Source: Candidatus Nanoarchaeia archaeon
GTDB taxonomy: Archaea; Nanobdellota; Nanobdellia; SCGC-AAA011-G17; JAGVZF01
DNA: 47,666 nt
NCBI GenBank assembly: GCA_035288965.1
Contig: DATDYQ010000048.1
Coordinates: 1-47,666, forward strand
Direction: 5' to 3'
The notes beneath the pieces were generated by a model. That model saw only the letters and a list, made by a program, of their open reading frames with translations, did no database searches and was not told where the DNA came from. Of the stretch, positions 15,263 through 47,184 are shown one piece after another. The first letter of the stretch is position 1. Every line of letters starts with the position of its first letter. Made by a program: the position numbers and the translations under genes.

Positions 15263-16765
15263 ATGATGAAGGATAGATTACCAACTAAGTTAAAAACTGG
15301 AACTTTTGTAAATTGGGAAGGTGTAGTTGAAGATATTGATACTCCTTTGCTTAGGGGATTAGATCCAAATCAAGATAATGAAAATTATAAAAAAGAAGTA
15401 AAAAAGACCTTTAAGAATCTAGAATTGGGTCATTTGGGTAATAATATTGTTAGATTATGGACCCGAAATATGGTAGATGTTAATCAGGAGAGATTTATTG
15501 ATAATTTAGTAGAAAGATTGTCTAATCCTTTTATTGATAGAAGTGTAATTGAACAAATTCATATGGGTGTTGAAGAATTAATTGGAAATCCGTCATTTTT
15601 TGGAAGCGTTCAAAAAGGTTTGCATAATCACCATATTGAAATAATAGATATTAAGCAAAGTTTTCTAGCTGGTAACATTGATTTTATTACATTTGAGAGA
15701 GGATCTTTGGAAAGTTATGATATATTAAGAAAAGTTTTATTAAAATCTGACAATAAACTCTTCAGAGATTTAGCAGATATATTTGGTTCATTCCATATTG
15801 TGGGAAATCCCGTTGCTGATTATTATAATATTGTTAATTCTCGTCATCTAAAAATTGTAGGTGATATAAATGGATTTAGATTATATCAAAAAAAAGATTC
15901 TCTTTATGTTGATTCATTAGATAAAAAAAATTTCACAAATGAAGAAAAATTTATTAAAATATGTATGGAGATGAGTGTTCAAAGACAGAAAGCATATAAA
16001 ATATTAGAAGGAAGTTCTGATTTCTTAGAATATATTGCTGCAATGGCTTTATGGGGGAATATAAATAAGTTTACTAAACCTACATTTAATAATGATGAAG
16101 TACTAGATATAAAAGAAGGTTATCATCCGCTTTTGATTTCAAGAAATGGAATTAATTTTAATCCGATTGTTACTCACGATACTCTTTTAACTCCTGATGT
16201 TAAGGTAGTTGCAGTTACGGGACCAAATGCAGCAGGTAAAACTACATATATCAAAGAGCTTGGATTAATATCAAGTTTAGCTCAAAGTGGAAGTTATGTC
16301 TCTGCAAAGATGGCAAATCTTCCTGTACAAAGGAAATTTTTAACTCATTTTGGATCAAAAGATGATATAATGGAAAATTTGTCTTTGTATCAAGCTGAAA
16401 TTCATGAACTAAATGTCTGCCTTTCTAAATTGGAAAAGGGTGTTTTATTTATTTGTGATGAACTCTTTAGAGGAACTGAATCTGGTGAGAATGGAGGAAC
16501 AAGATTACATAAGGCACTTGTGGAATCATTGGTATATGATTATCAGGGAAGAACTTATCTTTCTTCACATTACCATGAATCACTTGCTCAACAAAGAGAT
16601 TTACAGGGAATTAAATTTGCAAGGTTTGGTTTTAATGGAGACGGAAGGCCTTCATATAAGTTACAAAGTGGAATTGATAAGGGGGGATATGCTGTTCAAT
16701 CTGCAATTGATGCTGGATTAGATAAGAAAGTTGTGAAAAGATTGAATGGTAATGGAAAGTTATAG
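15263..16765 (+). CDS. MutS-related ATPase (MutS domain V only)
   Basis: Walker A is VTGPNAAGKTTYIKELG and Walker B is LFICDELFRGTE. The later SSHYHE matches the MutS ABC ATPase core. I see no recognisable mismatch-binding domain. Confidence 0.7.
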   Translation: MMKDRLPTKLKTGTFVNWEGVVEDIDTPLLRGLDPNQDNENYKKEVKKTFKNLELGHLGNNIVRLWTRNMVDVNQERFIDNLVERLSNPFIDRSVIEQIHMGVEELIGNPSFFGSVQKGLHNHHIEIIDIKQSFLAGNIDFITFERGSLESYDILRKVLLKSDNKLFRDLADIFGSFHIVGNPVADYYNIVNSRHLKIVGDINGFRLYQKKDSLYVDSLDKKNFTNEEKFIKICMEMSVQRQKAYKILEGSSDFLEYIAAMALWGNINKFTKPTFNNDEVLDIKEGYHPLLISRNGINFNPIVTHDTLLTPDVKVVAVTGPNAAGKTTYIKELGLISSLAQSGSYVSAKMANLPVQRKFLTHFGSKDDIMENLSLYQAEIHELNVCLSKLEKGVLFICDELFRGTESGENGGTRLHKALVESLVYDYQGRTYLSSHYHESLAQQRDLQGIKFARFGFNGDGRPSYKLQSGIDKGGYAVQSAIDAGLDKKVVKRLNGNGKL

Positions 16766-17671: not shown

Positions 17672-17857
17672 ATGGAAGATTATTATCAGGTGCTGTTAGA
17701 TTATGTTAAGCCAGATGATGATAATGTTAGAAAACATTCTCTCCTTTTAGATAATCCAATAACTAAAGAAACTAGAATTCCTGATTTAGAGCAGTTAGTA
17801 ATAGATAAAGAAACTAAATCTTTGTTTCCAAAAAAAAATGAAAAGAAGATTTCTTAA
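17672..17857 (+). CDS. small ORF (61 aa); possibly the frameshifted N-terminus of the downstream transglutaminase-like protein
   Basis: It sits at the canonical distance from a promoter motif. It runs through an A9 homopolymer (17830-17838) that also contains the ATG of the 805-aa ORF in another frame. Confidence 0.3.
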   Translation: MEDYYQVLLDYVKPDDDNVRKHSLLLDNPITKETRIPDLEQLVIDKETKSLFPKKNEKKIS

Positions 17858-20255
17858 TGCTTTTGAGATGTATTTAACACGTTTTCCATTTTACAGTCAA
17901 GAGTTAATACATACTGAAATGGAATTGTCTAAAAAAGAATTTATAAACTTTACAAATAAAATCGATAGGGAAGATAGTACAAGAGCGTTGCTTAACTTTT
18001 GTGGTTATGATGTGGAAGGATTGGATTCAGCTAGAGATATATTTGAATTTGAACTTAAAAAATGGCAAGATAATAAAGATTATTATGTTCCTGTAAGAGA
18101 TTTCTTTGGGCCTTTTATTCCAGAGAATATTATTAATCTAGATGATCCTTATTCAGAAGAATTAATGAATCCGTTAAGACATAGCAGAGATTTTAGTCGT
18201 TATTTAATTTCAATTGCTGCTCTGCCATTTTCTTTAATGGCTCTTTTGCCTGGAGCCTTGTTATCTAAATTTTTTAATAATAATGATACGTCAGAACCTT
18301 TAGATAAAAGAGAAACTGACTTTAATACTAGGGATAAAAGTGATAGTTCTAGCTTTTTTGATAATCTTAAATATAAACTAGCTGATTGGTTAGAATGGTT
18401 TAAAGATATGAATTTAGTTGCTACATATAATAATGATTCAGATTTATTTTTTGTAGAACATTTGATATCAGATTTTCATTCTTCTAATGATAGAATAAAA
18501 GATTTATATAGAAATGGAGTGGCACACAAGGCTTCTAGTGTTTTAACTTCGTCAACAGATATTGAAGATGATGGTTTAGAGCTGGAATTTATTAATGGAA
18601 GTGCTCCCATAGACAAATCAAATATACCACTTCCGATGTTTTACTCTTTATTTGAAACTAGAGATAATGTTGCTAAGATGTACAGATGTAATTGGAATTT
18701 AGATGATACAATAAATAGTCAACTTAGTGCAAATCTTAGACTACCTGAAAAATTCATAAATAGAATTGATGAACTAGTTAAAGGAGAAAAATCAATTGAT
18801 AAAATAAAAGATGAAGTTAAAGAGATGTTTATTTATAAAAAGCCTAAAAAATATAAGGGATTAAGCAGATTTGAATCGGCTGCAGTTTCTATGAATGGTG
18901 TTTGTCAGGATGTTAATTTTTTTCTTTGGCATATTTTAAGGAAAAAAGGAATTCCTAGCTATCTTGCTGTGGGCTTGCAGGGAAAAAATGGAGGAATTAC
19001 CAGAGATTCTGGACATGCAAAAGTTATAGCTTATGACAAAGATAAAAAAGAATGGGGGGAATATGATTCAACTCCAAGAAAAGAAGATGTTGAAATATAT
19101 GAAATGAAAAGAGGATCAAAACAACCAAGCATAGATATTGCTTTCTTGAGAAAAGGTTTGGGTTATTTAAGTTATCCTATCTATATGGGATTAAGTTTTG
19201 GAATTGGAGCTATGGTAACTGGAATAAGATTTACCAAACAAAAAACATTAGAAGGTATGATTATGGCTGAAAAGAGGATTTGTAAAAATGTCTTAGATGA
19301 TTTAGAAGAACATCTTAATAGATTTGATGATAATCTAAATAATGTTGATAAAAATCAAATGTTGTTATTTGAAGAGAAAGAAAAAATCAAAGATGAAACT
19401 ATAGAAAATTCCAGAGATATCATGAATATGTCCAATATTCCGATAATTACTAATGATTCTGAAACAAATCATGAAATTGGAAAGATAGAAAAACTGTTTA
19501 ATCCTTTTAAAATTCTTTATCAGATTGATGAACTAAAATATGTTGTTGATACTCTCCCAGAATATGTTAAAAGGTATCATTATTTTGTTATGGCTGAAAA
19601 TGTTTTTAATGATGTTTTAATAACTAAAGGAGAATTATTTCCATTTACACCAAAAAGACCTGATGAATGGAAAAATGTTATGTTAAATTTATTTAATACC
19701 TTTGCCGAAATTAAAGAGCCTCCACATCCTTTAGAAACAAGACAGCCACGAAGATATTATTATAAAGCTAAAAGGGGAATGTCTGTTAAAATAGATGATG
19801 AAATAACAACTTGGGTAAAAAAACCAAGATTCATTAAAGATTTACATTCTGATGAAAAAAATGTTTTTATAGATGATAGCCATAACAATAATCTGGAAAC
19901 TGTGAAGAACATCTATGAAGGAATGACTGATTATAATGAATGGTATATGGTGACTCATGAAAACGTGGATATGAAACCAGATGTCAAACATTACACATAT
20001 TCTCCTCAAATATTATCTTTTGATAAAATGTGGGCTGTTTCTTCTGAAGAATATTGGACATTATTTGGAAATATAATAAAAAAACATATAAAAAATAGTG
20101 AATCTGTTTTTAGATATATGTGGGAAGATTTAGTTAAAATGCATAATGAGTATAGGAAAGGTAATGGTATGTATTCTTTGACAATCAATTATAACAATGG
20201 CAATATGTTTACAGAAACAGATGAAAAATATGTTGAATTAGAAGATCCATGGTAA
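17838..20255 (+). CDS. membrane protein with transglutaminase-like Cys-His-Asp core
   Basis: The core GVCQDVNFFLWHILRKKGIPSYLAVG...SGHAKVIAY...WGEYDSTP matches the transglutaminase-like cysteine protease pattern. TM segments flank it: YLISIAALPFSLMALLPGALL and YPIYMGLSFGIGAMVTGI. Confidence 0.65.
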   Translation: MKRRFLNAFEMYLTRFPFYSQELIHTEMELSKKEFINFTNKIDREDSTRALLNFCGYDVEGLDSARDIFEFELKKWQDNKDYYVPVRDFFGPFIPENIINLDDPYSEELMNPLRHSRDFSRYLISIAALPFSLMALLPGALLSKFFNNNDTSEPLDKRETDFNTRDKSDSSSFFDNLKYKLADWLEWFKDMNLVATYNNDSDLFFVEHLISDFHSSNDRIKDLYRNGVAHKASSVLTSSTDIEDDGLELEFINGSAPIDKSNIPLPMFYSLFETRDNVAKMYRCNWNLDDTINSQLSANLRLPEKFINRIDELVKGEKSIDKIKDEVKEMFIYKKPKKYKGLSRFESAAVSMNGVCQDVNFFLWHILRKKGIPSYLAVGLQGKNGGITRDSGHAKVIAYDKDKKEWGEYDSTPRKEDVEIYEMKRGSKQPSIDIAFLRKGLGYLSYPIYMGLSFGIGAMVTGIRFTKQKTLEGMIMAEKRICKNVLDDLEEHLNRFDDNLNNVDKNQMLLFEEKEKIKDETIENSRDIMNMSNIPIITNDSETNHEIGKIEKLFNPFKILYQIDELKYVVDTLPEYVKRYHYFVMAENVFNDVLITKGELFPFTPKRPDEWKNVMLNLFNTFAEIKEPPHPLETRQPRRYYYKAKRGMSVKIDDEITTWVKKPRFIKDLHSDEKNVFIDDSHNNNLETVKNIYEGMTDYNEWYMVTHENVDMKPDVKHYTYSPQILSFDKMWAVSSEEYWTLFGNIIKKHIKNSESVFRYMWEDLVKMHNEYRKGNGMYSLTINYNNGNMFTETDEKYVELEDPW

Positions 20256-20317
20256 TTCTAACTACACAATTTTATACTTTATGTTTTAATCTTTTAAAAG
20301 TGGTAACAAAGCGATAG

Positions 20318-20326
20318 ATTTAAATA
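20318..20326 (+). promoter_or_regulatory. TATA-like box (atttaaata) upstream of the AAA-Ubl-JAB-E1 operon; SD-like aaggtggg at 20361-20368
   Basis: This is the only TATA-like element in the 20256-20377 spacer. Unlike the leaderless genes, this one would have a ~30-nt leader, with GGTGG 10 nt before the ATG. Confidence 0.4.
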
Positions 20327-20377
20327 CTGCCATTTTTCTTAAAAATTAAGATGTTAATCTAAGGTGGGTATGATGCA

Positions 20378-21895
20378 ATGAGAAACAAAGAATACGAAGA
20401 AATGCAAACAACTATTCTTTTATTAGAAGAGGAAGTAAATCGACTACGAGAGCCTCCTTACAAAGCAGGAACTGTTTTACAACTTGGAAAAAAAACAGTA
20501 CGACTTATTGTAGATGGAGGTAGTTTTATCGAAGTTGCTATGCCAAGTGATAAAGGTTTAAGTGCAGAAATTAGGAAGAAATTAAGATCAGGAGCAAGAG
20601 TTATTTTGAATGGAGCTGGAGCTATTGTTGATTATTCTGAATTTGATAAGACCATATGTGGAGAAATTACCACTGTTGATGAAATTAACTGTGATAGATT
20701 GAGAGTTAATGTAAGAGGAGAACCAAGAATGGTTTTAAACACTCTAAAAGATGTTAAGGTAGGAGATGAGGTTCAATTGGATTTATCTGGATTACTTGTT
20801 ACTGAAAGATTTGATAGAAAAAAAACACGTTATGTTTTGGAAAAAATTCCGCAAGCACCTTGGAATAATATTGGCGGATTGGAAAAAGCAATTTGTGATA
20901 TTAGGGGAGAAATTGAAGAACCTTTTTTACACAGAGATATCTTTAATAGATATGGACAAGGTCCTGCTAAGGGAATTTTGCTTTACGGACCACCCGGATG
21001 TGGAAAAACAATGATTGCAAAATCTATTGCATATAATCTTGCAAAATTAACAGGCAATGGAGCAGGACATTTTATAAGTGTGAAAGGTCCTGAGATCCTG
21101 GATAAATTTGTAGGAAATTCTGAAGCAAATATCAGAAGAATTTATGGTGCTGCACGTGATGAAGCTAAAGAAAGTAATGTACCAACAGTTGTTTTCATTG
21201 ATGAGGCAGAATCAATCATGAAAGCAAGAGGTAGTGGAATCTCGACTGATGTTTATGACTCTATTGTTCCGCAATTTCTTGCAGAAATGAGTGGTTTAAA
21301 TGGGGGGGATTACGAAGTAGTCACTGTATTGGCCACTAACAGAGAGGACATAATTGATCCTGCAATTTTAAGAGATGGTAGGGTGGATATAAAAATTCGA
21401 ATTCCTAGACCAGACAGAAAGGGAGCTGAACAAATTTTTAAAATATATTTAAAAGATAGACCTATGCGTGGGTTAATGGCTTCTACCAAAGGTCTTGTTG
21501 AAGAAATTGTTGAAAGAATCTACGATGACGAAACAGCAGCATATAATATAATTTCTCCGACTGGAATTATTGGGAGTTTTGGTTATCAAAATTTAATAAG
21601 TGGTGCAATGATAAAAGGAATTATTGATAGGGGATGTAAATCTGCAATTCGAAGAGAAATTGAAGGCGGAAAGAAAGGGTTAGAAAAAGAAGATTTGTAT
21701 CGTGCTGTTAAAGAAAAATTTGATGAGAATTCCGAATTCACGCAAGCACTTGTAAGGGACGATTGGGAAGTTGTTTTTGGTGGAGAAGGAAAGCAATTAT
21801 ACGAAATGTATCGTCATGGACATTTACATTTACAAAAGGCTGATGAACAAAGTGGGAATGATGTTAAACAAAATGAAGGGAGGCAAAGTAAATGA
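20378..21895 (+). CDS. AAA+ unfoldase with N-terminal coiled coil and two OB-like domains; resembles Mpa/ARC more than PAN; no HbYX C-terminus
   Basis: The coiled coil EEMQTTILLLEEEVNRLREPP is followed by OB-like segments. Walker A is GPPGCGKT and Walker B is VVFIDEAES, with NREDIIDPAILRDGRVD downstream. The post-AAA segment is SGAMIKGIIDRGCKSAI...DDWEVV. The protein ends ...NEGRQSK. Confidence 0.85.
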   Translation: MRNKEYEEMQTTILLLEEEVNRLREPPYKAGTVLQLGKKTVRLIVDGGSFIEVAMPSDKGLSAEIRKKLRSGARVILNGAGAIVDYSEFDKTICGEITTVDEINCDRLRVNVRGEPRMVLNTLKDVKVGDEVQLDLSGLLVTERFDRKKTRYVLEKIPQAPWNNIGGLEKAICDIRGEIEEPFLHRDIFNRYGQGPAKGILLYGPPGCGKTMIAKSIAYNLAKLTGNGAGHFISVKGPEILDKFVGNSEANIRRIYGAARDEAKESNVPTVVFIDEAESIMKARGSGISTDVYDSIVPQFLAEMSGLNGGDYEVVTVLATNREDIIDPAILRDGRVDIKIRIPRPDRKGAEQIFKIYLKDRPMRGLMASTKGLVEEIVERIYDDETAAYNIISPTGIIGSFGYQNLISGAMIKGIIDRGCKSAIRREIEGGKKGLEKEDLYRAVKEKFDENSEFTQALVRDDWEVVFGGEGKQLYEMYRHGHLHLQKADEQSGNDVKQNEGRQSK

Positions 21896-22353
21896 GAATG
21901 TTTGGAAGAAAAGAAACTGCTGCTGTTAAACCATTTGCGAAGCAAGAAGTTTTAGAGAATGAGGTTGTAAAACCGATTATTGCAACTGCAAGACCTGGCT
22001 TAACTGATGAGTCTTCTGCTTTAATGAGAAGACTTCCTTCAAATTATGCAGGAAGAACTGTAAGAGATGTACTAAGCTATATGGTTGATTTCAATGAAAG
22101 CAGATCTGCAGAAGCAACAAGTCGATATGGTAAAAAAGTTAAAGATAGTGAAGCTGCTATAATAACAAGCTTGAAGAATGAACTTGGAGCTGCAGGAAGT
22201 GTTGTTGTTATTAATGGTAAAAATGCAAAATTAACTGACAGAATAGACCAATATTTAGTTGATAGAACTAAAAATGTCAGCGGAAGAAATATTCAATATC
22301 AAGAACTTGAGATAGAAGTTTCTGCAGTTCAGCAAGGCGGTTACAGGTTTTAA
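21892..22353 (+). CDS. ubiquitin-like beta-grasp (ThiS/MoaD/SAMP-like) protein with a ~50-aa N-terminal extension, ending GG-YRF
   Basis: The C-terminal part ...GSVVVINGKNAKLTDRIDQYLVD...ELEIEVSAVQQGG|YRF follows the ThiS/MoaD-type layout. The GG is at aa 149-150 (nt 22336-22341), followed by three residues. ATGA overlap with the ATPase gene, and GGGAGG upstream. Confidence 0.6.
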   Translation: MRMFGRKETAAVKPFAKQEVLENEVVKPIIATARPGLTDESSALMRRLPSNYAGRTVRDVLSYMVDFNESRSAEATSRYGKKVKDSEAAIITSLKNELGAAGSVVVINGKNAKLTDRIDQYLVDRTKNVSGRNIQYQELEIEVSAVQQGGYRF

Positions 22354-22396
22354 TTTCTTGCAGATGTAGAAGAATCTTAATCGGTTTGAGAAAGAA

Positions 22397-23398
22397 ATGG
22401 CAGACTTAGATATACTTTTAACTGGGGAAGAGCCAGAAGAAAAATTAGAAGGAGAAAAAAATTTTGGATTAAATGAATTATATATTTCTAAATATGCTTA
22501 TGAAAAAGCCTTTAGATATGCAGAACTTGTTATGCGAGAGAGGAGCGATAGTGTTGAAATCGGGGGATTTTTAACTACACAAAAAGGTGCCAATGACAGG
22601 GTTGCAAGAGATGCATTCCTTGCTCGTGATCAAGAAGTTAGTCGGGGATTTTATAAATTAAGTGCAGAAGATGTTTTGAAGGCTAAGAAAGAGATTGAAG
22701 ATAAAGAACAAAAAATTATTGGGTGGTGGCATAGTCATGGAAGATTTGATGCTTATCATTCTGAAACTGATAGCAAAAATCAGATGGTTTTGCTTAATCA
22801 AATTTCCACTTCTAATTATATTCCCTTTCCTAAAGAAAGAGATTATGATAGTTTGCAAAGCAGAATAGAAGGTAATAAAATAATCTTTTGGGATCCTGAA
22901 GATCCTATCAAGAAATTTGAACTTGAGTTAAAAGAAGAAAATCCTGAATTGGTAGCAAAGAGATTGAAGATTTTAGAGGATAAAAAAATTGGATTTGCTT
23001 ATAGTTTTGTTGTTAATAATCATAGATGGTTGAGAAAAAGAGTTCCTTATTTCGAAATTGCAACAAGAGATTTATGTGTAGACTGTATTAATGCAAATGA
23101 TGTGAGTGTGCCTGTTGGATACAAGATTTTTGATGAAGGGGAATATAAAATTGATGATGAACAATTGATTGCAGAAATTAATGAGCGGGTTCATGTTTTT
23201 GGTGAAGGTCATAAAAATAAAAAATATCTATTGCCTTCAACTTTTGAAGAGCAACGGATGGCTGGAACGCTTTCTAAACCAGATTTCGGATCGATATCTA
23301 AGGTAAGAAAACGTAAATACTACAGAACTGATGAAGGAAGTTTTAAAGGTAAAAAGAAAGAAGAGCAAAAAGACGATTCTAAAGAGGTAGGAAGATGA
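22397..23398 (+). CDS. JAB/MPN+ (JAMM) metalloprotease with ~200-aa C-terminal extension
   Basis: An exact JAMM motif, HSHGRFDAYHSETD (H-x-H-x7-S-x2-D), lies at nt 22730-22771. The upstream Glu is in SVEIGGFL. Confidence 0.85.
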   Translation: MADLDILLTGEEPEEKLEGEKNFGLNELYISKYAYEKAFRYAELVMRERSDSVEIGGFLTTQKGANDRVARDAFLARDQEVSRGFYKLSAEDVLKAKKEIEDKEQKIIGWWHSHGRFDAYHSETDSKNQMVLLNQISTSNYIPFPKERDYDSLQSRIEGNKIIFWDPEDPIKKFELELKEENPELVAKRLKILEDKKIGFAYSFVVNNHRWLRKRVPYFEIATRDLCVDCINANDVSVPVGYKIFDEGEYKIDDEQLIAEINERVHVFGEGHKNKKYLLPSTFEEQRMAGTLSKPDFGSISKVRKRKYYRTDEGSFKGKKKEEQKDDSKEVGR

Positions 23399-24078
23399 AA
23401 TATAAAATAGGACAGAAAGTTTTTATAAAAAGAGCAAATGGGGAGTTGGACCATAAACCAAAAGGAAGTTATTATTATGGGGGTAGTTTCAGGGATCTTC
23501 CGTTAGGATCAAAGGGAACTATTAATGAAATTGTCAATGAAAATATGATTGGTCTAAGAGTGGAAAAACAAAATTATGGTTATAGGTGGTATGTGCATCC
23601 CAGTGAGTTACCTACACCTGAAGAAATAAATTTACATGAAAGAAAGGAACAGGAAAAGATTAATTCTCAGTTAAAAAGTATTCTGTTAGCTGATGAACCA
23701 ATTGTTAAAATGTCGATAACAAGACAAAAATCCTTTGATCCGAAGTTTAATGCAAGAGAAGAGTTTGTTGTTTGGATAAGGGAAGAATTTCCGGAATTAA
23801 AAAAATATTCAAAGAACAAAAGAAAATATTCTGATTTAATAAATAGAAAAAAGGAAGTTATGGAAGGAGCAAAGAAAGCTTATGAACACGCACTTAAAAC
23901 TACTGACAGTTGTGTTAGGGTTGATTTTATTGAAAGCTTTAAGGAGCTTAATAAGCGTATGGGAAATTTTGCTAATGGGCTAGATGAGTTCGTTACCTTT
24001 ATCGAGTATGTTTCTGCTAATCTGATAAACAAAAAAGATAGACATTATGGAACAACTTTAGCAAGAAGAATAAAATGA
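23395..24078 (+). CDS. unrecognised family, paralogue 1 (SH3/KOW-like N-domain plus helical module with H-x7-C)
   Basis: 227 aa. It shares LLADEP..K....SFDPKFNAREEFVVWIREEFPEL...EHALKTTDSC...IEYVSANL...RHYGT with ORFs 25490 and 26121. ATGA overlaps at both ends. Confidence 0.6.
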   Translation: MKYKIGQKVFIKRANGELDHKPKGSYYYGGSFRDLPLGSKGTINEIVNENMIGLRVEKQNYGYRWYVHPSELPTPEEINLHERKEQEKINSQLKSILLADEPIVKMSITRQKSFDPKFNAREEFVVWIREEFPELKKYSKNKRKYSDLINRKKEVMEGAKKAYEHALKTTDSCVRVDFIESFKELNKRMGNFANGLDEFVTFIEYVSANLINKKDRHYGTTLARRIK

Positions 24079-25493
24079 CGAATGACAAAAATATACGATA
24101 TGACAGACAGCAAAGAATTCAAAACTGGCAGCAAGAAAGATTAGCAAATGCAAAGATAGCAATTATTGGATCTGGACAATTAGCCCAATTTACAGCAGCT
24201 TCACTTGTCGCTCTTGGTGTAGGAAATGTAGAAATATATTGTAATGAAAAAGTTAATGGAAAGGAATTCTTAACTTTTGATAGTAATGGAGATGATAAGT
24301 CTAGCTTACTCGAAAAGAAGTTGCATGAAATGAATCCTGATGCTAATGTTAGAAGTTTTAAAATGGAAAGTGATGATAATATACTTTCTTTAGTTGATAA
24401 TCCTGATATAATTTTAGAGTTGACAAATTCATCTGAATTAAAAGAAAAAATTATGGAATATGCAAATGCACATAATGTAAAAATAATTTCTGCATCAACC
24501 GGAAAAACAGGAGGAGAATTATATTTTGTTAAACCGGGAGATGATTATTCGAGTGCAAAACTTACAAAATACGATGGAGAAAAACAGAGAACATTCACTA
24601 GCGAAATTTTTGGTGGTATGATTACAGAAGAAGTTAGAAAGATTTTGATGCCTCTTAAAGAAGGAGAAGATGCTGTTAAGAATTTGGCTTATGATGCGAC
24701 TGCTGAAAAGAGATTCAGTAAAGAAGGAGATTTTGATGCACAGCCTTTTGAAGATTTATCACAAAAAAGAATTTTAATTATCGGAGCAGGAGCTCTTGGG
24801 AATTTTGTTGCTTTGGGAGCTACGCTTGAGGGAATCGGAAAAATTGATATTTTAGATTTTGATGAAGTTGAACCTCATAATCTAAACAGACAAATTATGT
24901 TTTACGATGCTGTTGGAAAGAAAAAATCTTTAGCACTAGCAGAAAAGATCAAACAAATTAACCCTGACATCGAAGTTAAAGGATTGGTTGAAAAATTAGA
25001 TGAGAATACAACTTATTTTTTAAACAATAACCCAGACTTAATTTTGGATTGTGTTGATAACTTTGCAACTAGAGCTATAACAAATTACTTTGCTGTTCAT
25101 TATGGAATTCCGTTAGTAAGTGGTGGAACAAATTCAAATTCTGGGCAAGTTGTTGTTTATGAGCCTGGACAGAGTGCCTGTTTAGAATGTAAACTTGGTG
25201 TTGAACAAGCATTAGGGGTAGCTTTACAAGGAAGCAAGTGCACAGACGCACCTAATCCAAGTGTAATCATGACAAATGAAATTATTGGAGGAATGATGGT
25301 TGGAGAAGCTTTGAAAGTTTTAGATAAAGGATATGGAACTTCAGTTTCAAGAATTTTGAAATATGATTCAACAGCTCCTGTTAGGGGTGGTTTAATCGGA
25401 GCTAGTAATGCATGTGAATGTTCAAGGGGAGAAATTAAGGAATGGCTGCAAGGGGTTAAAGAGATGTTTTCTTTAGCTAAGGATGAAAAATGA
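24075..25493 (+). CDS. E1-like activating enzyme with tandem ThiF/MoeB-type domains (degenerate N-terminal, active C-terminal)
   Basis: Domain 1 is RYDRQ...KIAIIGSGQLAQ...GVGNVEIYCNEKV and lacks the DxD...NLNRQ motif. Domain 2 is RILIIGAGALGN...IDILDFDEVEPHNLNRQ...LDCVDNFATR...CLEC...GSKCTDAP...CEC. Confidence 0.85.
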   Translation: MTNDKNIRYDRQQRIQNWQQERLANAKIAIIGSGQLAQFTAASLVALGVGNVEIYCNEKVNGKEFLTFDSNGDDKSSLLEKKLHEMNPDANVRSFKMESDDNILSLVDNPDIILELTNSSELKEKIMEYANAHNVKIISASTGKTGGELYFVKPGDDYSSAKLTKYDGEKQRTFTSEIFGGMITEEVRKILMPLKEGEDAVKNLAYDATAEKRFSKEGDFDAQPFEDLSQKRILIIGAGALGNFVALGATLEGIGKIDILDFDEVEPHNLNRQIMFYDAVGKKKSLALAEKIKQINPDIEVKGLVEKLDENTTYFLNNNPDLILDCVDNFATRAITNYFAVHYGIPLVSGGTNSNSGQVVVYEPGQSACLECKLGVEQALGVALQGSKCTDAPNPSVIMTNEIIGGMMVGEALKVLDKGYGTSVSRILKYDSTAPVRGGLIGASNACECSRGEIKEWLQGVKEMFSLAKDEK

Positions 25494-26116
25494 CTTTTGA
25501 TATTGGAGAAAAAGTGAAGATTGTAAAAACAGAGGGATTTAATAGAGGATGTTATAGAAATGGACTTTCTTTATTCCAAATTCATCTAGGAACTAAAGGA
25601 GTGATTACAAATATACAAAATAATAAAGATGCTTTTATTTATGTTAGAATAGGGGGAGAGGATTATTCTTTTCTACCAACTGAATTAGCTTATTGTGAAG
25701 AAGGAAAAAGTAAGCATGAAAAGAAAAAATTGGAGAGTTTGCTTATTGCAGAAGAGCCTGTTGATAAAATTAAAAAAGAAAAATCCTTTGATCCGAAGTT
25801 TAATGCAAGAGAAGAGTTTGTTGTTTGGGTAAGGGAAGAATTTCCGGAATTAATGTATCAAAAGGGACATTATGAAATACCTTCTAAAAGAAGAAGAGAA
25901 GTTTATGAAGCTGCAATAGCTGCATGTCGGCATGGTATTGAAACAACTGGAGCTTGTGTGCAAAGGACATTTCAAAATAATTTTAGTAATTTAATGACGG
26001 ATGGTTGCTCAGATCTTGAAGTAAGAATATATAGCATAGTATCTTTAATAGAATGTGTTTCTGCTAATCTGGGAAACGAAAATAGACATTATGGAACAAT
26101 TTTAGCAAGAAAATAA
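25490..26116 (+). CDS. unrecognised family, paralogue 2 (SH3/KOW-like N-domain plus helical module with H-x7-C)
   Basis: 208 aa. Motifs: LLIAEEPVDKIKKEKSFDPKFNAREEFVVWVREEFPEL...RHGIETTGAC...IECVSANLGNENRHYGT. ATGA overlap with the E1 gene. Confidence 0.6.
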   Translation: MTFDIGEKVKIVKTEGFNRGCYRNGLSLFQIHLGTKGVITNIQNNKDAFIYVRIGGEDYSFLPTELAYCEEGKSKHEKKKLESLLIAEEPVDKIKKEKSFDPKFNAREEFVVWVREEFPELMYQKGHYEIPSKRRREVYEAAIAACRHGIETTGACVQRTFQNNFSNLMTDGCSDLEVRIYSIVSLIECVSANLGNENRHYGTILARK

Positions 26117-26120
26117 TAAA

Positions 26121-26858
26121 ATGACTAATGATAAACTAGATGAATTATTAAACGGGAAAGAGCCAGAAGAAAGATTAGAAGTGAATGTTAATCGGGAATT
26201 CAAGCCTAAAATTAATGTGAGAGAAGAATTTGTATTGTGGATCCGTGAACAGTTTCCGGAACTTGGAGAATATATAAAAAAAGGAGGCATATATAAAAGT
26301 TTAGAAACTCGTGAGGAGGAGATTTATCAAGCTGCTCTGGGAGCAGTAAATCATGGTTTAACCTCTACTGAAGATTGTGCAAGCACACGTTTACATTCTG
26401 GATGGGTTGAATTTGAAAAAGGATTTGGGGTAAAGGGAAATCCTAGAAGAAGAGCAAAGAGTTTAGGAAGTTTTGTTAAGGCATTAGAAGACCTCTCAAT
26501 TAGCTTAGGTGGAGACAAACATTATACGAGGGCCGGAAAATTTTTAAATGGTAAACCTTATAGTGATTATTTGTATAGAAATCTGCGAGCTTTTGTTTAT
26601 ATGGTGGGAGAGGAAAATGGCAAGGATACAAAATACCTAGTTTTTGATGTAAAACAAAAATTTGAAGGCAATAATATCCCTGTTTTGATAGGTGAACTTC
26701 GTGGATTATCAAAATGGGATTTTGAAAGTTTAGGGAGAATTGCCTCTAAATTTCAGGGAACTGAGATAGATTTTATTGAAAAGGTTGATAAACTTGTTCC
26801 ACAAAAAGGATCATATGACTATTCACATGGATATTATGGCAGTGTTAAGTATAAGTGA
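26121..26858 (+). CDS. unrecognised family, paralogue 3 (helical module first, then a distinct ~110-aa C-terminal domain)
   Basis: 245 aa. Motifs: LLNGKEPEERLEVNVNREFKPKINVREEFVLWIREQFPEL...NHGLTSTEDC...LEDLSISLGGDKHYT. It starts MTNDK, as the E1 does. Confidence 0.6.
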   Translation: MTNDKLDELLNGKEPEERLEVNVNREFKPKINVREEFVLWIREQFPELGEYIKKGGIYKSLETREEEIYQAALGAVNHGLTSTEDCASTRLHSGWVEFEKGFGVKGNPRRRAKSLGSFVKALEDLSISLGGDKHYTRAGKFLNGKPYSDYLYRNLRAFVYMVGEENGKDTKYLVFDVKQKFEGNNIPVLIGELRGLSKWDFESLGRIASKFQGTEIDFIEKVDKLVPQKGSYDYSHGYYGSVKYK

Positions 26859-35435: not shown

Positions 35436-35966
35436 TTATTTGAAAATAACTTCTTTAGTGATATCAATGAGTTCTTTACAAATCTTTTTCAAGTTGTTAA
35501 TTTTTGCTTCTTCTTTTACTGAAATCTGTACTCCATAAGTGTAACCCTCTCTTAGATCAATGATACTACTCTCTTTGATATCATCCATCTCTTCATATTC
35601 TAATAGTTCGATAAATTTTTCATCAAGCTGGATTTCATTATTCTCTTTGAGAAATCTTATTAGTGCGATAGTGCATGTCTGATTTGAAGATTCATAACCA
35701 AATTTAGTAGCGATTGCTAGGAAACAATGATAAATGCAATAGAATCCAGCTGATATAGACCAATCGGAAAATCCAATCTCTCTGAATTTTGTTATGCCAT
35801 CTAGGTTATGCTCTGCTTTGACTAGGTGTTTCTTCGCTTCTTTAATACTTGGGTCTATTTTCAACAAACCTCTATGTTTCTCTCTCTTGCCTAATTTTCT
35901 ACAATCTTTAATTTCTTTCTTTGCTTTGCTCAAACACCACTTCACCTGTTTAGAGGCTTGTGACAT
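35436..35966 (-). CDS. HEPN-domain protein (toxin partner of the MNT)
   Basis: 176-aa helical protein, ...AKKHLVKAEHNL...SAGFYCIYHCFLAIATKFG.... It overlaps the upstream nucleotidyltransferase gene by 17 nt. Confidence 0.65.
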   Translation of the reverse strand: MSQASKQVKWCLSKAKKEIKDCRKLGKREKHRGLLKIDPSIKEAKKHLVKAEHNLDGITKFREIGFSDWSISAGFYCIYHCFLAIATKFGYESSNQTCTIALIRFLKENNEIQLDEKFIELLEYEEMDDIKESSIIDLREGYTYGVQISVKEEAKINNLKKICKELIDITKEVIFK

Positions 35967-36540
35967 TTTTCAGTATCTCCACATATATATCCTGACCATA
36001 AATGATAATTGCATTTTTTATTATATCCAAGAAGGCTTTATCTTTCTTTTTAAGATTTTCTAATAAGTCTAAGTGAGTTAATTTGATAGCGTGAAGTTTT
36101 TTAGGAAGTATTTCTTCTTTTTTCTTCAAAACAGTATTTACTTCTTTGACCTCTTTATTTTCTAGTACTATCATTATATCAATATCTTGGGCATGAGCAT
36201 AATCTTTAATTGTAGAGCCAAAAAGCATGACTATTCTGTCTTTCTTAAAGAGTTCTTTAAATTCTTCTTTCCAGCGTTTGAATTTATTTGCTTCGTCTGC
36301 GAGTATGAAAGCAACGAGGTGAGTAACATAATCATTACTAAAATTAAGTTTGTAGATTATGGATTTTCCTATGGTTTTGCTTATTACCAAATTTTCCTGA
36401 AGAAGTCTTTTAAATATCTTCTGAGCACCAACATGGCTGATGTTAAGGATTTTGCTAATGGAATTGGCATTATAAAAATTAGTGTAATCTTTGAATAAGA
36501 TAATTACAGTTTCTCGTTCTTTTTGGGTCAAAGTTATCAT
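35950..36540 (-). CDS. nucleotidyltransferase (MNT-type) with N-terminal winged HTH
   Basis: The wHTH is ISKILNISHVGAQKIFKRLLQENLV. The minimal NTase motif is MLFGSTIKDYAHAQDIDIMIV (GS...DxD). Confidence 0.75.
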   Translation of the reverse strand: MITLTQKERETVIILFKDYTNFYNANSISKILNISHVGAQKIFKRLLQENLVISKTIGKSIIYKLNFSNDYVTHLVAFILADEANKFKRWKEEFKELFKKDRIVMLFGSTIKDYAHAQDIDIMIVLENKEVKEVNTVLKKKEEILPKKLHAIKLTHLDLLENLKKKDKAFLDIIKNAIIIYGQDIYVEILKNVTSL

Positions 36541-39882: not shown

Positions 39883-41787
39883 ATGTGGGAATTTAATAGA
39901 GATAATCACGAAAGACTTGTTGAAAGTGTGTCTAAAATGAGGAATTCTGATATTGTTGAAAATCTGGAATATGAAGAGCCAAAATACACTTCTGCAAAAA
40001 CTGGGGAAATGTTAAATCCAGAGGTTATTGATCTAACTAAAAAGATATATACAAATTTAGACTTGCCTGTCGCTGGATTTAATCAAGGTGGTTTAATATC
40101 TGGAATGGCAATTTGTAAGCAAAGCAGAGCGGAAGATGATGCAAGAGTGATTACGGCTAGAATGATTCAGGGCAATAAAAAATTGAGGAATGCCTTGGAT
40201 AAATTACAGATTCCGGATTATATGTCTGAAATAGGCGGTCCATTTTTTGAAGCTGTTTGGGATGAGTATGGTGATGATTCTGTTGCAAGAAATGTAGATT
40301 TTTCAGCAGTATTTCATGGAGTTTCTATGTTAGAAGCTATGACTTTGTTGCATAATCGGGTTTTGTTTGGAATAGAAAAATCTACAAGGTATGTTGATTA
40401 TAGTGAGAGAAGAAGAGATGGGAATTTTAACTATATTGTTGATCCTTTGATTAAAATGGTAGGATTAGAAAATGATTTTAGAAGAACAACTGATAGATTT
40501 TTTAAGATATATTCTAGAGTTATCAATGATAAAGGGGATAAATATAAAGAATTATTGGGATGGATTGGCAATAATCTACCTTTTGAAAATTTCAAAGAAA
40601 AAGCCCAGGAATCTTTAAAAAGATTGGGCCAAGAATATGCAACAGATGAAGAATTAAAAGAAGGATATAGCAGAACAATAAGCGCTGCTCTTAAAGATCA
40701 AGTAAGACATTTGCTCCCTCTTTCTGCGAGAACAAGTCTTGGCATTATCTTTAATGCTGAAGCTATGCGTCATTTAGTATATCAACAGCAATCTAGATTT
40801 TTTGCTGAAGGAATTATGATAAATGAATTATTTAAAAGAGAGATGAAAAAATTAGTCGGACCTTTATTAGACCATACAGAATATGATGATAAAAGATCTA
40901 TTGAAAGTCGTGATTTCCTTTTTGAAACGAGAAAACCATTAATAGGATATAAAATAAGAGATATTGATTTTAAAGAAGCTGATAGCATAATAAAAAATGA
41001 AAAACTTAAATTAGATGTTTATAGATATGGTGATTTTGTAAAAGTAAATGATTCTAATTTAAATCTAGAAATTATGTTTAATTTAGATGGAAGTTTAGAT
41101 GACCTTATTTCTGCAATATTACGAGAAAAAGTTTCTAATATAACGATTACTCAATCTAATAATGAAGTTAAACATATGTCTAGAGAACAAAAAATAAAAT
41201 TGTTGAATAATTATGCGGGAATTGGACATGATGATTTAAGAAAAAATAGAAGATATAAACCCGGGAGGGCTTTTGAAGTTGTAAGTTTGGATTTAACTAT
41301 GTTAATGCCAATAGCTGAAATAAGGGATATTCGAAGACATACTGTTCCATCTTATCTTGATCCTTTAAATTTTAATCCAGAACTTGGATCTTATATATCT
41401 CCTGGATTAAGAGCAATAGGATTAGAGGGGGATATTCAAAAAGCTAATAAAGAATCAAGCAGTATGTGGTATAGGATTAATGAAAAATGTGGTCCTTATG
41501 CTGCCAGCACTTCATTACCAATGTCGACATTTGGTTCGATGAATACTAAGATTAATTTAAGAGAGGATTTTCATATAAATGAATTAAGAACTCAGACAGG
41601 GGCTGCCCCTGTTTATTTGAGATTATGTCAGATGAAATATGCTGGTTTAAGTGTTTTAATGCCTGAAGTGGCAAGATTGATGAAGTTTGTAAATCAAGAA
41701 ACTGAAATTGACTTTGGAAGATCCATACAGGAAATGCGTTCTATCAAAAAAAGAAAGGAATCTCAAGAGAAAGTAAATATTGCTTAG
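39883..41787 (+). CDS. large ThyX-like (FAD-dependent thymidylate synthase-like) protein, probable fused pseudo-dimer
   Basis: LLHNRVLFGIEKSTRYVDY resembles a degenerate RHRxxSxxxxSxRY ThyX signature. INLREDFHINELRTQTGAAPVYLRLCQM resembles the ThyX C-terminal NLRE..H...LR...AQ.EIR motif. At 634 aa it is over twice the length I recall for a ThyX monomer. Confidence 0.5.
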   Translation: MWEFNRDNHERLVESVSKMRNSDIVENLEYEEPKYTSAKTGEMLNPEVIDLTKKIYTNLDLPVAGFNQGGLISGMAICKQSRAEDDARVITARMIQGNKKLRNALDKLQIPDYMSEIGGPFFEAVWDEYGDDSVARNVDFSAVFHGVSMLEAMTLLHNRVLFGIEKSTRYVDYSERRRDGNFNYIVDPLIKMVGLENDFRRTTDRFFKIYSRVINDKGDKYKELLGWIGNNLPFENFKEKAQESLKRLGQEYATDEELKEGYSRTISAALKDQVRHLLPLSARTSLGIIFNAEAMRHLVYQQQSRFFAEGIMINELFKREMKKLVGPLLDHTEYDDKRSIESRDFLFETRKPLIGYKIRDIDFKEADSIIKNEKLKLDVYRYGDFVKVNDSNLNLEIMFNLDGSLDDLISAILREKVSNITITQSNNEVKHMSREQKIKLLNNYAGIGHDDLRKNRRYKPGRAFEVVSLDLTMLMPIAEIRDIRRHTVPSYLDPLNFNPELGSYISPGLRAIGLEGDIQKANKESSSMWYRINEKCGPYAASTSLPMSTFGSMNTKINLREDFHINELRTQTGAAPVYLRLCQMKYAGLSVLMPEVARLMKFVNQETEIDFGRSIQEMRSIKKRKESQEKVNIA

Positions 41788-45917: not shown

Positions 45918-46011
45918 TTGATATAAAATTTACTTAATAAAATAATATAAAAATGTTTTGATTTATAGTGATTTGTTAGTATTTATAAAGTTTTATATCT
46001 TAATAATCTCC

Positions 46012-47184
46012 ATGAAATTGGTGACAAATATATATGATTTATGTGATAATAAAACAGTAAAAGTTGTATTAAATAATAAGTTAAGAAATTTAATATTAAA
46101 TAAAATAGACAATAAAAAACTAAATCAAATTGCTAAAGAATTAAATATAACATATTCTACATTATGGAAATATATTAATAAAAGGTATTCTGTACCTCTT
46201 GAATTATTTAAGATTTTAAATATAAATTTGCCCAAGAGTATTATTCTTGAAAGTGGTTCAAAAAGAAATAAAGTTAAATTACCCCCTTTATTAACAGAAG
46301 ATTTAGCTAAAATTATAGGTGCTTATGTAGCTGATGGTCATTTAAGAAGAAGAATTACAGTATGGAACGAAAATAAAAATGCTACCCATTATGAATTTGT
46401 TTTAAGAGAAGAATATAAAACAAATGTTGATTCTTTCTGTAGATGGTTTAATAATAGCTTTGGAACAAAAATAGTTCCTATAAAAAGGAAAAATCATTAT
46501 GAAGTTTATGTAAGTAATAAGATCATTTTCTTATATTTAACCAGAATATTAAGATTATTAACTGGAAAAAAGGTAAATATTATAGATATTCCAGAATATA
46601 TCAAAGATTCTAGTAAAAATATTCAAATTTCTTTTTTGAAAGGCCTTTTTATGTTTGATGGTGGTGTTGATTATAGAAATGGTTATGTAACGTTGATATC
46701 AAAAAGTGAAAGGTTGATAAATAGTGTTCATCAAATTCTAAATAATCTTGGTATGAGTTCACATTATTGTTCTAGAAAACAAGATAAATTTGGGAGATAT
46801 AGAATATTGATTAGAGATCGGGAAAGTTTGAAAAAATCTTTAATTTTATTTGAAAAAAATACTGAGAAATGGCATAGACTTCATGAAAATTTATATGGAT
46901 TTAAATATAATAAAATTCAAAAACTAGACACCTTTTTATATAAATTAAATAAATATTATCCAAAAAAGAGAAAATCTTCTATAAACTTCAACGACGTAAT
47001 TTTGGTAGTAAATGGATTAGATGAGGCAAATTTTAAAGATATTTCTTTAAAATTATCAAGAAAAAAGACAGTTGTATATGAATTTCTTAATAAATTAAAA
47101 AGATGGAAAATTTTAAAAAATAAACAGAAAGGTTTAAATAAGGTTTGGATGATTCAAAATAATCTACCAATTATAAGGAGGTAA
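46012..47184 (+). CDS. free-standing double-motif LAGLIDADG endonuclease-like protein with N-terminal HTH
   Basis: Two LAGLIDADG motifs: LAKIIGAYVADGHL and ISFLKGLFMFDGGV. The HTH is LNQIAKELNITYSTLWKYI. The ORF-track start at 45958 is a TTG, and ATG 46012 lies ~25 nt after a TATA-like tttataaag. Confidence 0.75.
   Translation: MKLVTNIYDLCDNKTVKVVLNNKLRNLILNKIDNKKLNQIAKELNITYSTLWKYINKRYSVPLELFKILNINLPKSIILESGSKRNKVKLPPLLTEDLAKIIGAYVADGHLRRRITVWNENKNATHYEFVLREEYKTNVDSFCRWFNNSFGTKIVPIKRKNHYEVYVSNKIIFLYLTRILRLLTGKKVNIIDIPEYIKDSSKNIQISFLKGLFMFDGGVDYRNGYVTLISKSERLINSVHQILNNLGMSSHYCSRKQDKFGRYRILIRDRESLKKSLILFEKNTEKWHRLHENLYGFKYNKIQKLDTFLYKLNKYYPKKRKSSINFNDVILVVNGLDEANFKDISLKLSRKKTVVYEFLNKLKRWKILKNKQKGLNKVWMIQNNLPIIRR

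Follow-up and report, generated by a model that had tools for sequence, protein, structure and literature searches.

A candidate ubiquitin-like conjugation operon headed by an Mpa/ARC-type unfoldase gene in DPANN archaea

Introduction

Tag-directed protein unfolding is known in two unrelated forms, the ubiquitin-E1/E2/E3-26S proteasome pathway and the Pup-PafA-Mpa pathway. Pup itself is disordered and is ligated by PafA/Dop, in a pathway found in Actinomycetota, Nitrospirota and others, and its free N-terminus is the part that enters the pore of the unfoldase first. Here we analyse a seven-gene operon from Candidatus Nanoarchaeia archaeon that encodes an Mpa/ARC-type AAA+ ATPase, a candidate ubiquitin-like (Ubl) tag, a JAMM metalloprotease, an E1 enzyme and three paralogous cysteine proteins. 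The operon spans ~6.5 kb (20378-26858) of what we call the window, the whole stretch of DNA analysed (47,666 nt; assembly GCA_035288965.1, contig DATDYQ010000048.1, positions 1-47,666 of the forward strand). With cautious preference, we read it as a Ubl conjugation system functionally coupled to a Pup-type unfoldase in DPANN (Nanoarchaeota-group) archaea.

Three groups of described systems come closest in their Ubl machinery. BilABCD is an antiviral Ubl conjugation system of bacteria, in which a JAB/JAMM protease trims the Ubl precursor and BilD is an E1 made of an inactive and an active adenylation domain (IAD-AAD) (bioRxiv 10.1101/2023.09.26.559546). The SAMP/UbaA/HvJAMM1 system of Haloferax and Urm1 of Sulfolobus work without an E2, rely on JAMM enzymes for removal and are tied to AAA+/proteasome turnover (PMC4895103, PMC4569737). 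The ubiquitin operons of Caldiarchaeum and Asgard archaea are composed of Ub-E1-E2-RING-Rpn11; their E2 is of the UBC type, their E3 is a RING protein, and a gene for an unfoldase is lacking (PMC3082918, PMC5654768). The operon studied here falls outside the Bil, UbaA, desampylase, ThiF/MoeB and pup_AAA families as these are defined, and it contains two unannotated protein families. No description of this gene set was found in the literature searched (PMC8665760 included), a search whose coverage was incomplete and which leaves novelty unproven.

Results

Seven genes form one operon

The operon consists of seven open reading frames (ORFs), all on the + strand (Table 1). The junctions at 21892, 23395, 24075 and 25490 are 4-nt start/stop overlaps of the ATGA type, and the two remaining junctions are gaps of 43 nt (22354-22396, tag/JAMM) and 4 nt (26117-26120, paralogue 2/paralogue 3). 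This order and this pattern of overlaps and gaps had been described in a first-pass annotation made from the sequence, and the ORF list gave exactly these. The same annotation had remarked on the lack of a UBC-fold E2, a RING protein and a proteasome gene. Indeed, neither these nor a PAN gene were detected within the window; Pup, PafA, Dop and 20S genes were also missing from it, and no cofactor-biosynthesis genes lay near the operon. At the protein level, none of the operon products gave an E2, UQ_con or Prok-E2 match in Pfam, NCBIfam or PADLOC.

The gene set recurs in two operon types

Loci were gathered through the paralogue, tag and E1 families and annotated by homology. Since the locus scans used short peptide patterns, the distribution given here is under-counted. 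The gene set was present in matching order at ~25 distinct loci, with protein identities of 35-75%. The linkage first noticed on one contig is thus not unique to the window, and the recurrence of the gene order indicates that the arrangement is more than chance. The loci came from metagenome-assembled genomes (MAGs), single-cell genomes and metagenomes; all named sources belonged to Nanoarchaeota, Woesearchaeota and Pacearchaeota, the exceptions being two MAGs titled 'archaeon' and one labelled Methanosarcinales.

Two operon types were distinguished. Type A, with the order ATPase, tag, JAMM, (SH3-core)n, E1, SH3-core, core plus C-terminal domain, was represented by the window and by loci L003, L006/L027, L028, L013 and L026. 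Type B, with the order ATPase, tag, large protein, JAMM, E1, was found at ~15 loci, among them L007, L008, L009 (5306-7204), L011, L016, L020, L021, L023, L024, L031, L036 and L037. The existence of this sister operon, which swaps the paralogues for a different protein, is a caveat to the interpretation given in the first-pass annotation. In ~21 of 24 informative loci, the ATPase gene immediately preceded the tag gene, and the two mostly overlapped by 4 nt. On one MAG contig (L033:321-11170), a single E1 gene was accompanied by two JAMM genes and at least four genes for the large protein, a local expansion of the putative targeting parts. The genomic neighbours changed from locus to locus, and neither a defence-island context nor a link to mobile elements was found at the loci.

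Two further candidates for membership or variation were set aside. Locus L001 appeared to carry a variant without E1, which we rejected as a true form: the gene at L001:10795-11661 is a chimera of L006:12162-13034 and L006:14445-15302 that takes its 5' half from one paralogue and its 3' half from the other; the intervening E1 is gone, and the flanking sequences of the two loci are 100% identical. It is either the product of recombination (deletion) between paralogues or an assembly collapse. The Helarchaeota locus L039 was also rejected, as it held only a JAB gene and a distant single-domain E1.

The first gene encodes an Mpa-type unfoldase

The resemblance of the ATPase to Mpa/ARC, proposed in the first-pass annotation, was found to span its whole length. 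NCBIfam model TIGR03689 (pup_AAA) matched residues 8-477 on profile positions 26-508 of 512 with an E-value of 6.6e-113, and the score of 378.1 bits lay below the curated equivalog cut-off of 504.75; PAN models reached only ~1e-54. When the terminal segments were searched against the PDB, the N-terminal 160 aa matched Mpa only (residues 78-179, which cover the last part of its coiled coil and the OB region), and so did the C-terminal 151 aa (Mpa residues 473-581). From its N-terminus, the protein comprises a short coiled coil that closes with PPY (26-28), an OB region, a single AAA module and a C-terminal domain specific to Mpa. All motifs of the AAA module are intact: Walker A (204-211), the KFVG pore loop (243), Walker B (271), sensor-1 (319) and the Arg fingers (332-335). 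In a scan of 185,579 species genomes, the closest relatives outside these operons were bacterial Mpa/ARC proteins, with 34-40% identity over residues 7-474. None of 79 bacterial Mpa loci had any other gene of the operon.

The C-terminus was different. A G-x-Y-L/V tail (G-Q-Y-L, HbYX-like) is the docking motif for the 20S proteasome, and 74 of the 79 bacterial relatives ended in it. No HbYX/GQYL tail was present in the window ATPase, which ends in ...NEGRQSK, or in any of the 7 archaeal orthologues, whose tails were variable and charged. The end point of the system may therefore be unfolding or disassembly, without obligatory delivery to a 20S particle. The missing tail would also fit an ATPase that serves the conjugation machinery itself as chaperone or regulator and does not read tagged proteins; it might, for example, unfold or recycle the tag, dissolve tag/E1 assemblies or remodel the paralogues. 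The linkage between the ATPase and tag genes, the tightest of all, could be explained in this way too, and some bacterial Ubls are reported to oligomerise (PMC11601603). Nevertheless, the precedent of the Mpa family is tag-dependent substrate unfolding, and the N-tail of the tag, which is kept in all 36 tags examined (see below) and would stay free after conjugation through the C-terminus, fits engagement by the pore. We regard the chaperone role as improbable.

The tag has the features of a Ubl precursor

The second ORF had been put forward as a Ubl with a beta-grasp fold ending in GG-YRF. The C-terminus ...VQQGG-YRF, with Gly149-Gly150 followed by a putatively removable YRF, was read from the ORF itself, and an AlphaFold2 (AF2) model together with Foldseek searches also gave a beta-grasp. 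Its parts are a K/E/T/S-rich N-tail predicted to be disordered (~residues 1-27), a beta-grasp-like body into which a helical segment is inserted, the GG and the C-terminal tail. Its family comprised 37 protein clusters with 40-69% identity, all of them unnamed and derived from metagenomes or MAGs. In the alignment of 36 family members, the end ...EIEVSAVQQGG was nearly invariant and the GG at least 90% conserved. In all complete orthologues, 2-10 variable residues came after the GG, the first of them being Y, F or L, and the combination of conserved GG and variable trailing residues was seen in 34 of 36. Judged from these alignments, the GG end with its variable trailing residues is the signature of a putative Ubl precursor. 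An N-tail of 24-45 aa, rich in K, E, T and S, was found in all 36 orthologues.

The AF2 model had a predicted local distance difference test score (pLDDT) of 77 overall and below 50 for residues 1-23, with the element order b-b-a-(a)-b-b-3_10-b-b, that is, beta-grasp-like with a two-helix insert. When this model was compared with the PDB using Foldseek, 48 of the top 50 matches were, by our own reading of the list, Ubl or beta-grasp proteins, the top names including Nip45 SLD2, SUMO, Atg8/GABARAP, ISG15, the USP7 UBLs, the Ras-binding domains of PI3K and Raf, and Mth1743. The statistics of these matches were weak (E-values of 0.08-0.8 and target-normalised TM scores up to 0.64). Pfam, NCBIfam, PADLOC and PHROGs gave nothing for the tag, and no relatives of it were found among 2.9 million viral contigs.

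A single-chain E1 with paired adenylation domains

Consistent with its annotation as a fused E1, the fifth ORF matched Pfam ThiF in two stretches (9.9e-70) and proved to be a pair of one inactive and one active adenylation domain. The N-terminal half (~1-200) is a degenerate ThiF domain, an IAD that has no nucleotide motifs and keeps R8-Y-x-R11-Q12. The C-terminal half aligned with MoeB and ThiF with all adenylation motifs kept (GAGALGN at 237-243, D261/D263, N271-R-Q273 and D325-C-V-D328), and a four-Cys zinc site is formed by C369, C372, C447 and C449. Cys389 aligned with the conserved crossover-loop Cys of MoeB (LTCVEAG). The inserted CYS domain is absent, with 16 residues between C372 and C389. 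The IAD Arg motif, the nucleotide motifs, the zinc cysteines and Cys389 were invariant in the 7-9 E1 orthologues compared. Altogether, these motifs point to adenylation and to a thioester on Cys389.

The best NCBIfam families for the E1 were ThiF and MoeB, both with scores below the curated cut-offs (190.7 vs 275.25 and 166.6 vs 266, respectively). The UbaA model NF047750 scored 109.6 against a cut-off of 450. The PADLOC E1-E2 models covered only the E1 part, residues ~190-372. As for genomic context, all recovered E1 relatives belonged to this operon except that of L039, and none was in a thiamine or molybdopterin context.

That ThiF and MoeB are the nearest families raises the question of whether the operon is a sulfur-carrier system, in which a ThiS/MoaD-like GG protein would be trimmed by the JAMM enzyme, adenylated by the E1 and converted to a thiocarboxylate for the thiolation of cofactors, tRNA or metabolites, in the manner of QbsCDE or CysO/Mec+, the ATPase being unrelated or regulatory. 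In the Qbs layout, too, a protein with a GG end and a short tail goes together with a JAMM enzyme and an E1. However, the ThiF and MoeB scores fell under their cut-offs, the tandem IAD-AAD organisation is that of conjugating E1s, and no rhodanese domain, cofactor gene or thiolation gene was found in any locus. Moreover, the tag gene is translationally coupled to the unfoldase gene in ~21 of 24 loci, and the tag bears a long disordered N-tail unlike sulfur carriers. We therefore consider this explanation very improbable.

The JAMM protease and a motif shared across the operon

The JAMM protein matched Pfam Prok-JAB (2.7e-8) and holds the full catalytic set, Glu54 and H112-x-H-x7-S-x2-D (H112-S-H114...S122..D125). 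The site had been recognised in the first-pass annotation; it is intact, and Glu54, His112, His114, Ser122, Asp125 and also C227-x-x-C230 were invariant in 14 orthologues. An extension of ~150 aa is present as well. Among the NCBIfam models, the HvJAMM1-type desampylase NF041370 scored 32.1 against a cut-off of 130. An intact JAMM site beside a GG with a disposable tail suggests trimming of a precursor, as for BilC/BilA.

A motif of the type L-[DE]-x-L-L-x-G-E-E-P was common to the JAMM protein, the three paralogues (Table 1) and the Type B large protein. It occupied residues 4-13 in every JAMM orthologue and lay directly before the helical core in all paralogues. Searched as a regular expression in 411 unique ORFs, it gave 34 matches, 25 of them in JAMM, paralogue or large proteins, with 6 being a Walker-A artefact and 3 unrelated. 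Because a hydrophobic patch is followed by acidic residues, as in SUMO-interacting motifs, we read it as a common docking peptide: LDxLLxGEEP may be a SUMO-interacting-motif-like ligand for one common partner. It was kept even in loci without an adjacent ATPase gene.

Two families of cysteine proteins

The three paralogues had been noted as members of an unknown family. The family is real and no annotation was found for it. Paralogues 2 and 3 shared 37-46% identity with paralogue 1, over a common core of ~110 aa, and two architectures were apparent, an SH3-like N-domain plus core (paralogues 1 and 2) and a core plus C-terminal domain (paralogue 3). Paralogue 1 consists of an SH3-like barrel (1-72), a long helix, the docking-type motif (93-102) and an all-alpha core (120-206). 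Paralogue 2 has an SH3-like N-domain, the motif and a helical His/Cys core, and paralogue 3, the most conserved subtype in the family, combines the helical His/Cys core with a distinct C-terminal domain of ~110 aa and has no SH3 domain. The invariant His-x7-Cys reported in the first-pass annotation held for the cysteine, Cys173 being invariant in 35 family members, and was too strong for the histidine: His165 was nearly invariant (at least 90%, one member having Gln), and so was His217.

In the AF2 model of paralogue 1 (pLDDT 84), a small beta-barrel and a long helix were followed by an all-helical core in which Cys173 opens the helix 172-187. Foldseek searches of the PDB and BFVD matched the N-domain only, to eL21, chromo-barrel, PWWP, SH3 and Mind-bomb repeats; for the helical core they gave no match and no E2. 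Pfam, NCBIfam, PADLOC, PHROGs and PDB sequences also gave nothing for the core. A scan of each of the 35 paralogues and 23 large proteins yielded only weak SH3_15 matches, which in paralogue 1 fell within the SH3-like N-domain, and a profile search of solved structures with the paralogue family and the large-protein C-domain gave nothing credible. Among 1.84 billion representative proteins, a profile search retrieved only 72 relatives of the paralogues.

The Type B large protein (457-633 aa) has the SH3-like N-domain in common with the paralogues (hhalign 1.3e-21) and nothing else; comparison of the paralogue core with the large-protein C-domain gave a probability of at most 0.2. This C-domain carries NNxHPxxHN-x8-C-x-G, with invariant His-Pro, Cys and Gly, beta-strands before it and a long helix after it. 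The layout recalls the HPN...Cys loop of E2s, a motif resemblance only that sequence methods did not confirm; against six eukaryotic E2s, a small reference profile and hence a weak test, neither this C-domain nor the paralogue core exceeded an hhalign probability of 0.2. In the paralogues, the H-x7-C spacing is the sole reminiscence of an E2. A Cys protein is present in every system, in two non-homologous forms that have a common SH3-like domain and each an invariant Cys and a conserved His. Such proteins, always present, in two forms and multiplied in some genomes, fit a carrier or ligase with target-selecting domains. That the paralogues are thioester carriers is nonetheless a tentative proposal, and a metal-binding adaptor is a serious alternative for the Cys proteins.

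This alternative extends to the whole pathway. The chemistry could be the same and proceed without an E2 step, the E1 handing the tag straight to targets, and the Cys proteins could be non-catalytic adaptors, substrate receptors or first targets that recruit proteins to the E1 or to the unfoldase and bind a structural metal. SAMP conjugation without an E2 is established (PMC4895103), and SH3-like domains are typically binding modules. The paralogue core, all-alpha, is not UBC-like and has no E2 match, the joint conservation of His165, Cys173 and His217 would fit a metal site, and distant relatives of the core do without the Cys. On the other hand, Cys173 is strictly invariant in 35 members though nearby residues vary, its modelled place at the start of helix 172-187 would suit a nucleophile, and the Type B protein again has an invariant Cys after HP..H, in an E2 HPN...Cys-like layout. 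On balance, an E2-less pathway of this kind appears unlikely to us, though clearly less so than either the chaperone or the sulfur-carrier explanation.

Genomic surroundings of the operon

Upstream of the ATPase gene, a spacer contains a TATA-like element and a Shine-Dalgarno-like sequence (Table 1). No element comparable to the TATA-like TTTAAATA was seen by eye in the 43-nt gap at 22354-22396. On the 3' side, the operon is followed by a DUF1059 mini-gene, a tRNA-Lys gene and then the archaeal RNA polymerase operon. The remaining window has the content of an ordinary archaeal chromosome with ~30% G+C, including RNase J, Mre11/Rad50-like genes, NusA, S12, S7 and GMP synthase.

Several neighbouring genes were recorded in their own right. 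The gene that lies 122 nt upstream of the operon encodes 805 aa with a transglutaminase-like core (Pfam 1.3e-5). It was considered as an eighth member and rejected, since the loci searched with it, L001-L011, contained no counterpart. Further upstream, a 500-aa protein matched only domain V (ATPase) of MutS, without the mismatch-binding domains. A toxin-antitoxin-like pair of adjacent HEPN and nucleotidyltransferase genes is found on the far side of the RNA polymerase genes, ~9 kb downstream of the operon. A ThyX homologue of 634 aa matched the Thy1 profile at residues 115-299 only and may hold an insertion or an intein, and a LAGLIDADG domain was found in a separate ORF of 408 aa.

Table 1. 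Positions of the operon genes, of sites within them and of other features in the window
Feature	Position	Strand	Remarks
Upstream spacer, presumed promoter and leader	20256-20377	+	122 nt, AT-rich, read by eye
TATA-like TTTAAATA	20319-20326	+	read by eye
Shine-Dalgarno-like GGTGGG	20364-20369	+	just 5' of ATG, read by eye
Mpa/ARC-type AAA+ ATPase	20378-21895	+	505 aa
Tag (Ubl precursor candidate)	21892-22353	+	153 aa
Tag Gly149-Gly150	22336-22341		
Tag YRF, putatively removable	22342-22350		
JAMM/MPN+ metalloprotease	22397-23398	+	333 aa
JAMM motif LDILLTGEEP	22406-22435	+	residues 4-13
JAMM H112-x-H-x7-S-x2-D	22730-22771		
Paralogue 1	23395-24078	+	227 aa
Paralogue 1 motif LKSILLADEP	23671-23700	+	residues 93-102
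Paralogue 1 His165	23887-23889	+	
Paralogue 1 Cys173	23911-23913	+	invariant
Single-chain E1	24075-25493	+	472 aa
E1 Cys389	25239-25241		
Paralogue 2	25490-26116	+	208 aa
Paralogue 2 motif LESLLIAEEP	25730-25759	+	residues 81-90
Paralogue 3	26121-26858	+	245 aa
Paralogue 3 motif LDELLNGKEP	26136-26165	+	residues 6-15
MutS domain V protein	15263-16765	+	500 aa
Transglutaminase-like core protein	17838-20255	+	805 aa
HEPN and nucleotidyltransferase genes	35436-36540	-	
ThyX homologue	39883-41787	+	634 aa
LAGLIDADG ORF	45958-47184	+	408 aa

Discussion

From the gene set, its catalytic motifs, the conserved GG and tail, the predicted folds and the synteny described above, we infer the following biochemical steps. 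The tag would be made as a precursor, with a disordered tail of ~27 aa, a beta-grasp body and ...QQGG plus 2-10 extra residues. The JAMM protease would cut after Gly-Gly, freeing the reactive end, and would probably also detach the tag from its targets. The E1 would adenylate the terminal Gly and hold the tag as a thioester on Cys389. From there the tag would be passed to lysines of the targets. The most likely route is the invariant Cys of the paralogues, which would act as a non-UBC surrogate for E2/E3 and whose variable SH3-like or C-terminal domains would pick the targets. Finally, the Mpa/ARC-type hexamer, co-translated with the tag, would bind the tagged proteins, pull the free N-tail into its pore and unfold them. 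Translational coupling of the tag to an Mpa-type unfoldase and the universal retention of the N-tail fit the Pup/Mpa mode. Ubl conjugation chemistry is the component of this model that we consider probable; an action of the ATPase on the tag itself or on proteins that bear it seems fairly likely.

Several observations weigh against the model. The ATPase gene is not adjacent to the tag gene in L031, L037 and probably L025; in the Woesearchaeota loci L031:3587-9407 and L037:4682-9596, the order is tag, large protein, JAMM, E1, and tblastn for the ATPase was negative over ~17 kb, indicating that the conjugation module can stand alone. The beta-grasp assignment of the tag, based on one AF2 model and on weak Foldseek E-values, is consistent with the model and statistically weak, and the tag profile gave no match to ThiS/MoaD or to Ub/SUMO/NEDD8 in hhalign comparisons. 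The all-alpha core of the paralogues matches no E2 and no solved structure. Its most distant relatives (P0146-P0157) are stand-alone proteins of 100-120 aa with an F..W.R.QFP.L motif and without the Cys, and the fold may be that of an older binding module. For the core, a metal site made up of His165, Cys173 and His217 is as good a reading as a thioester Cys. Lastly, degradation as the outcome is unsupported, as the ATPase sequences have no HbYX/GQYL tail and no proteasome gene is linked to the operon.

As regards its biological role, an accessory function in conflict or defence, or in symbiosis, is evenly balanced in our assessment, and a function in core proteostasis is rather unlikely. We lean to the former on account of the sporadic occurrence, the shifting neighbourhoods and the multiplied and non-homologously replaced targeting proteins; expansion of such proteins and their replacement between operon types by non-homologous ones is a pattern of conflict systems. 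The lack of a defence-island context and of any link to mobile elements at the loci speaks against such a role. The maintenance of 6.5 kb in very small DPANN genomes suggests that the system is of real value. A bolder view is that the operon specifies a tag-and-unfold pathway of its own, independent of the two known ones and restricted to DPANN archaea. Its Ubl tag would be activated by a eukaryote-like single-chain E1, handed on by Cys carriers of a new all-alpha fold and read through its N-tail by the Mpa/ARC-type unfoldase; in the absence of proteasome docking, tagged proteins would be unfolded or disassembled and not degraded, most plausibly in conflict with viruses or the host cell. We hold this to be unlikely; if true, the ubiquitin and Pup worlds would be mechanistically linked and the E2 step would have been reinvented at least once. 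The operon also bears on how tags and unfoldases became paired and on whether this pairing is modular, it extends the single-chain IAD-AAD E1 to archaea beyond the Asgard and Caldiarchaeum lineages, and its two new Cys-protein families are both candidate conjugating enzymes of a non-UBC kind. Every component is a small soluble protein, which makes reconstitution in E. coli feasible.

Among the described systems, BilABCD shares with this operon a Ubl precursor trimmed by JAB/JAMM (predicted here), a single-chain IAD-AAD E1, an Arg supplied by the IAD and the four-Cys zinc site; the pairing of an inactive and an active adenylation domain on a single chain is also a likeness to eukaryotic E1s. 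In contrast to BilABCD, the operon has no UBC-fold E2 (BilB), and its E1 does without the mobile alpha-helical CYS domain of ~80 aa; as in MoeB and UbaA, the crossover loop that carries Cys389 is short. Additional components here are the AAA+ unfoldase and the novel Cys proteins, and the hosts are archaea, not bacteria. The CBASS Cap2/Cap3 systems differ in having an E1-E2 fusion beside a CD-NTase and an effector, whereas only the E1 part is found here and no CD-NTase is present in the window. QbsCDE and CysO/Mec+ resemble the operon in the GG protein with extra C-terminal residues, the JAMM peptidase and the ThiF/MoeB-like adenylating enzyme; however, they have rhodanese or biosynthetic partners and make thiocarboxylates, while here no such partners are linked and the E1 is a tandem IAD-AAD protein.

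The SAMP and Urm1 systems are similar in that archaeal Ubl conjugation, as proposed here, proceeds without a canonical E2 and with a JAMM enzyme. Nonetheless, SAMP genes are dispersed and UbaA is a single-domain homodimer, whereas the genes described here form one operon with a tandem E1. SAMPs end at the GG and double as sulfur carriers, the present tag having 2-10 residues beyond it, and their unfoldases are PAN or Cdc48 instead of an Mpa-type protein. The Caldiarchaeum and Asgard operons are likewise operonic archaeal ubiquitin systems with a precursor processed by a JAMM/Rpn11-like enzyme (predicted here); in contrast to them, neither E2 nor RING was detected in the present operon, which is headed by an Mpa-type ATPase. 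With the Pup-Mpa/ARC pathway, finally, the likeness lies in the motor and in the way it may be fed: the ATPase has the whole Mpa architecture at 34-40% identity, although its coiled coil is much shorter, and the disordered N-terminal segment of the tag could, like the N-terminus of Pup, be fed in ahead of the rest. Here, however, the host is archaeal, Pup, PafA, Dop and 20S are not linked, the GQYL tail is missing, and the tag is predicted to be a folded beta-grasp with a GG end that is activated by an E1. The operon thus joins ubiquitin-type chemistry, with a putative beta-grasp GG tag, an E1 and a JAMM protease, to a Pup-type motor.

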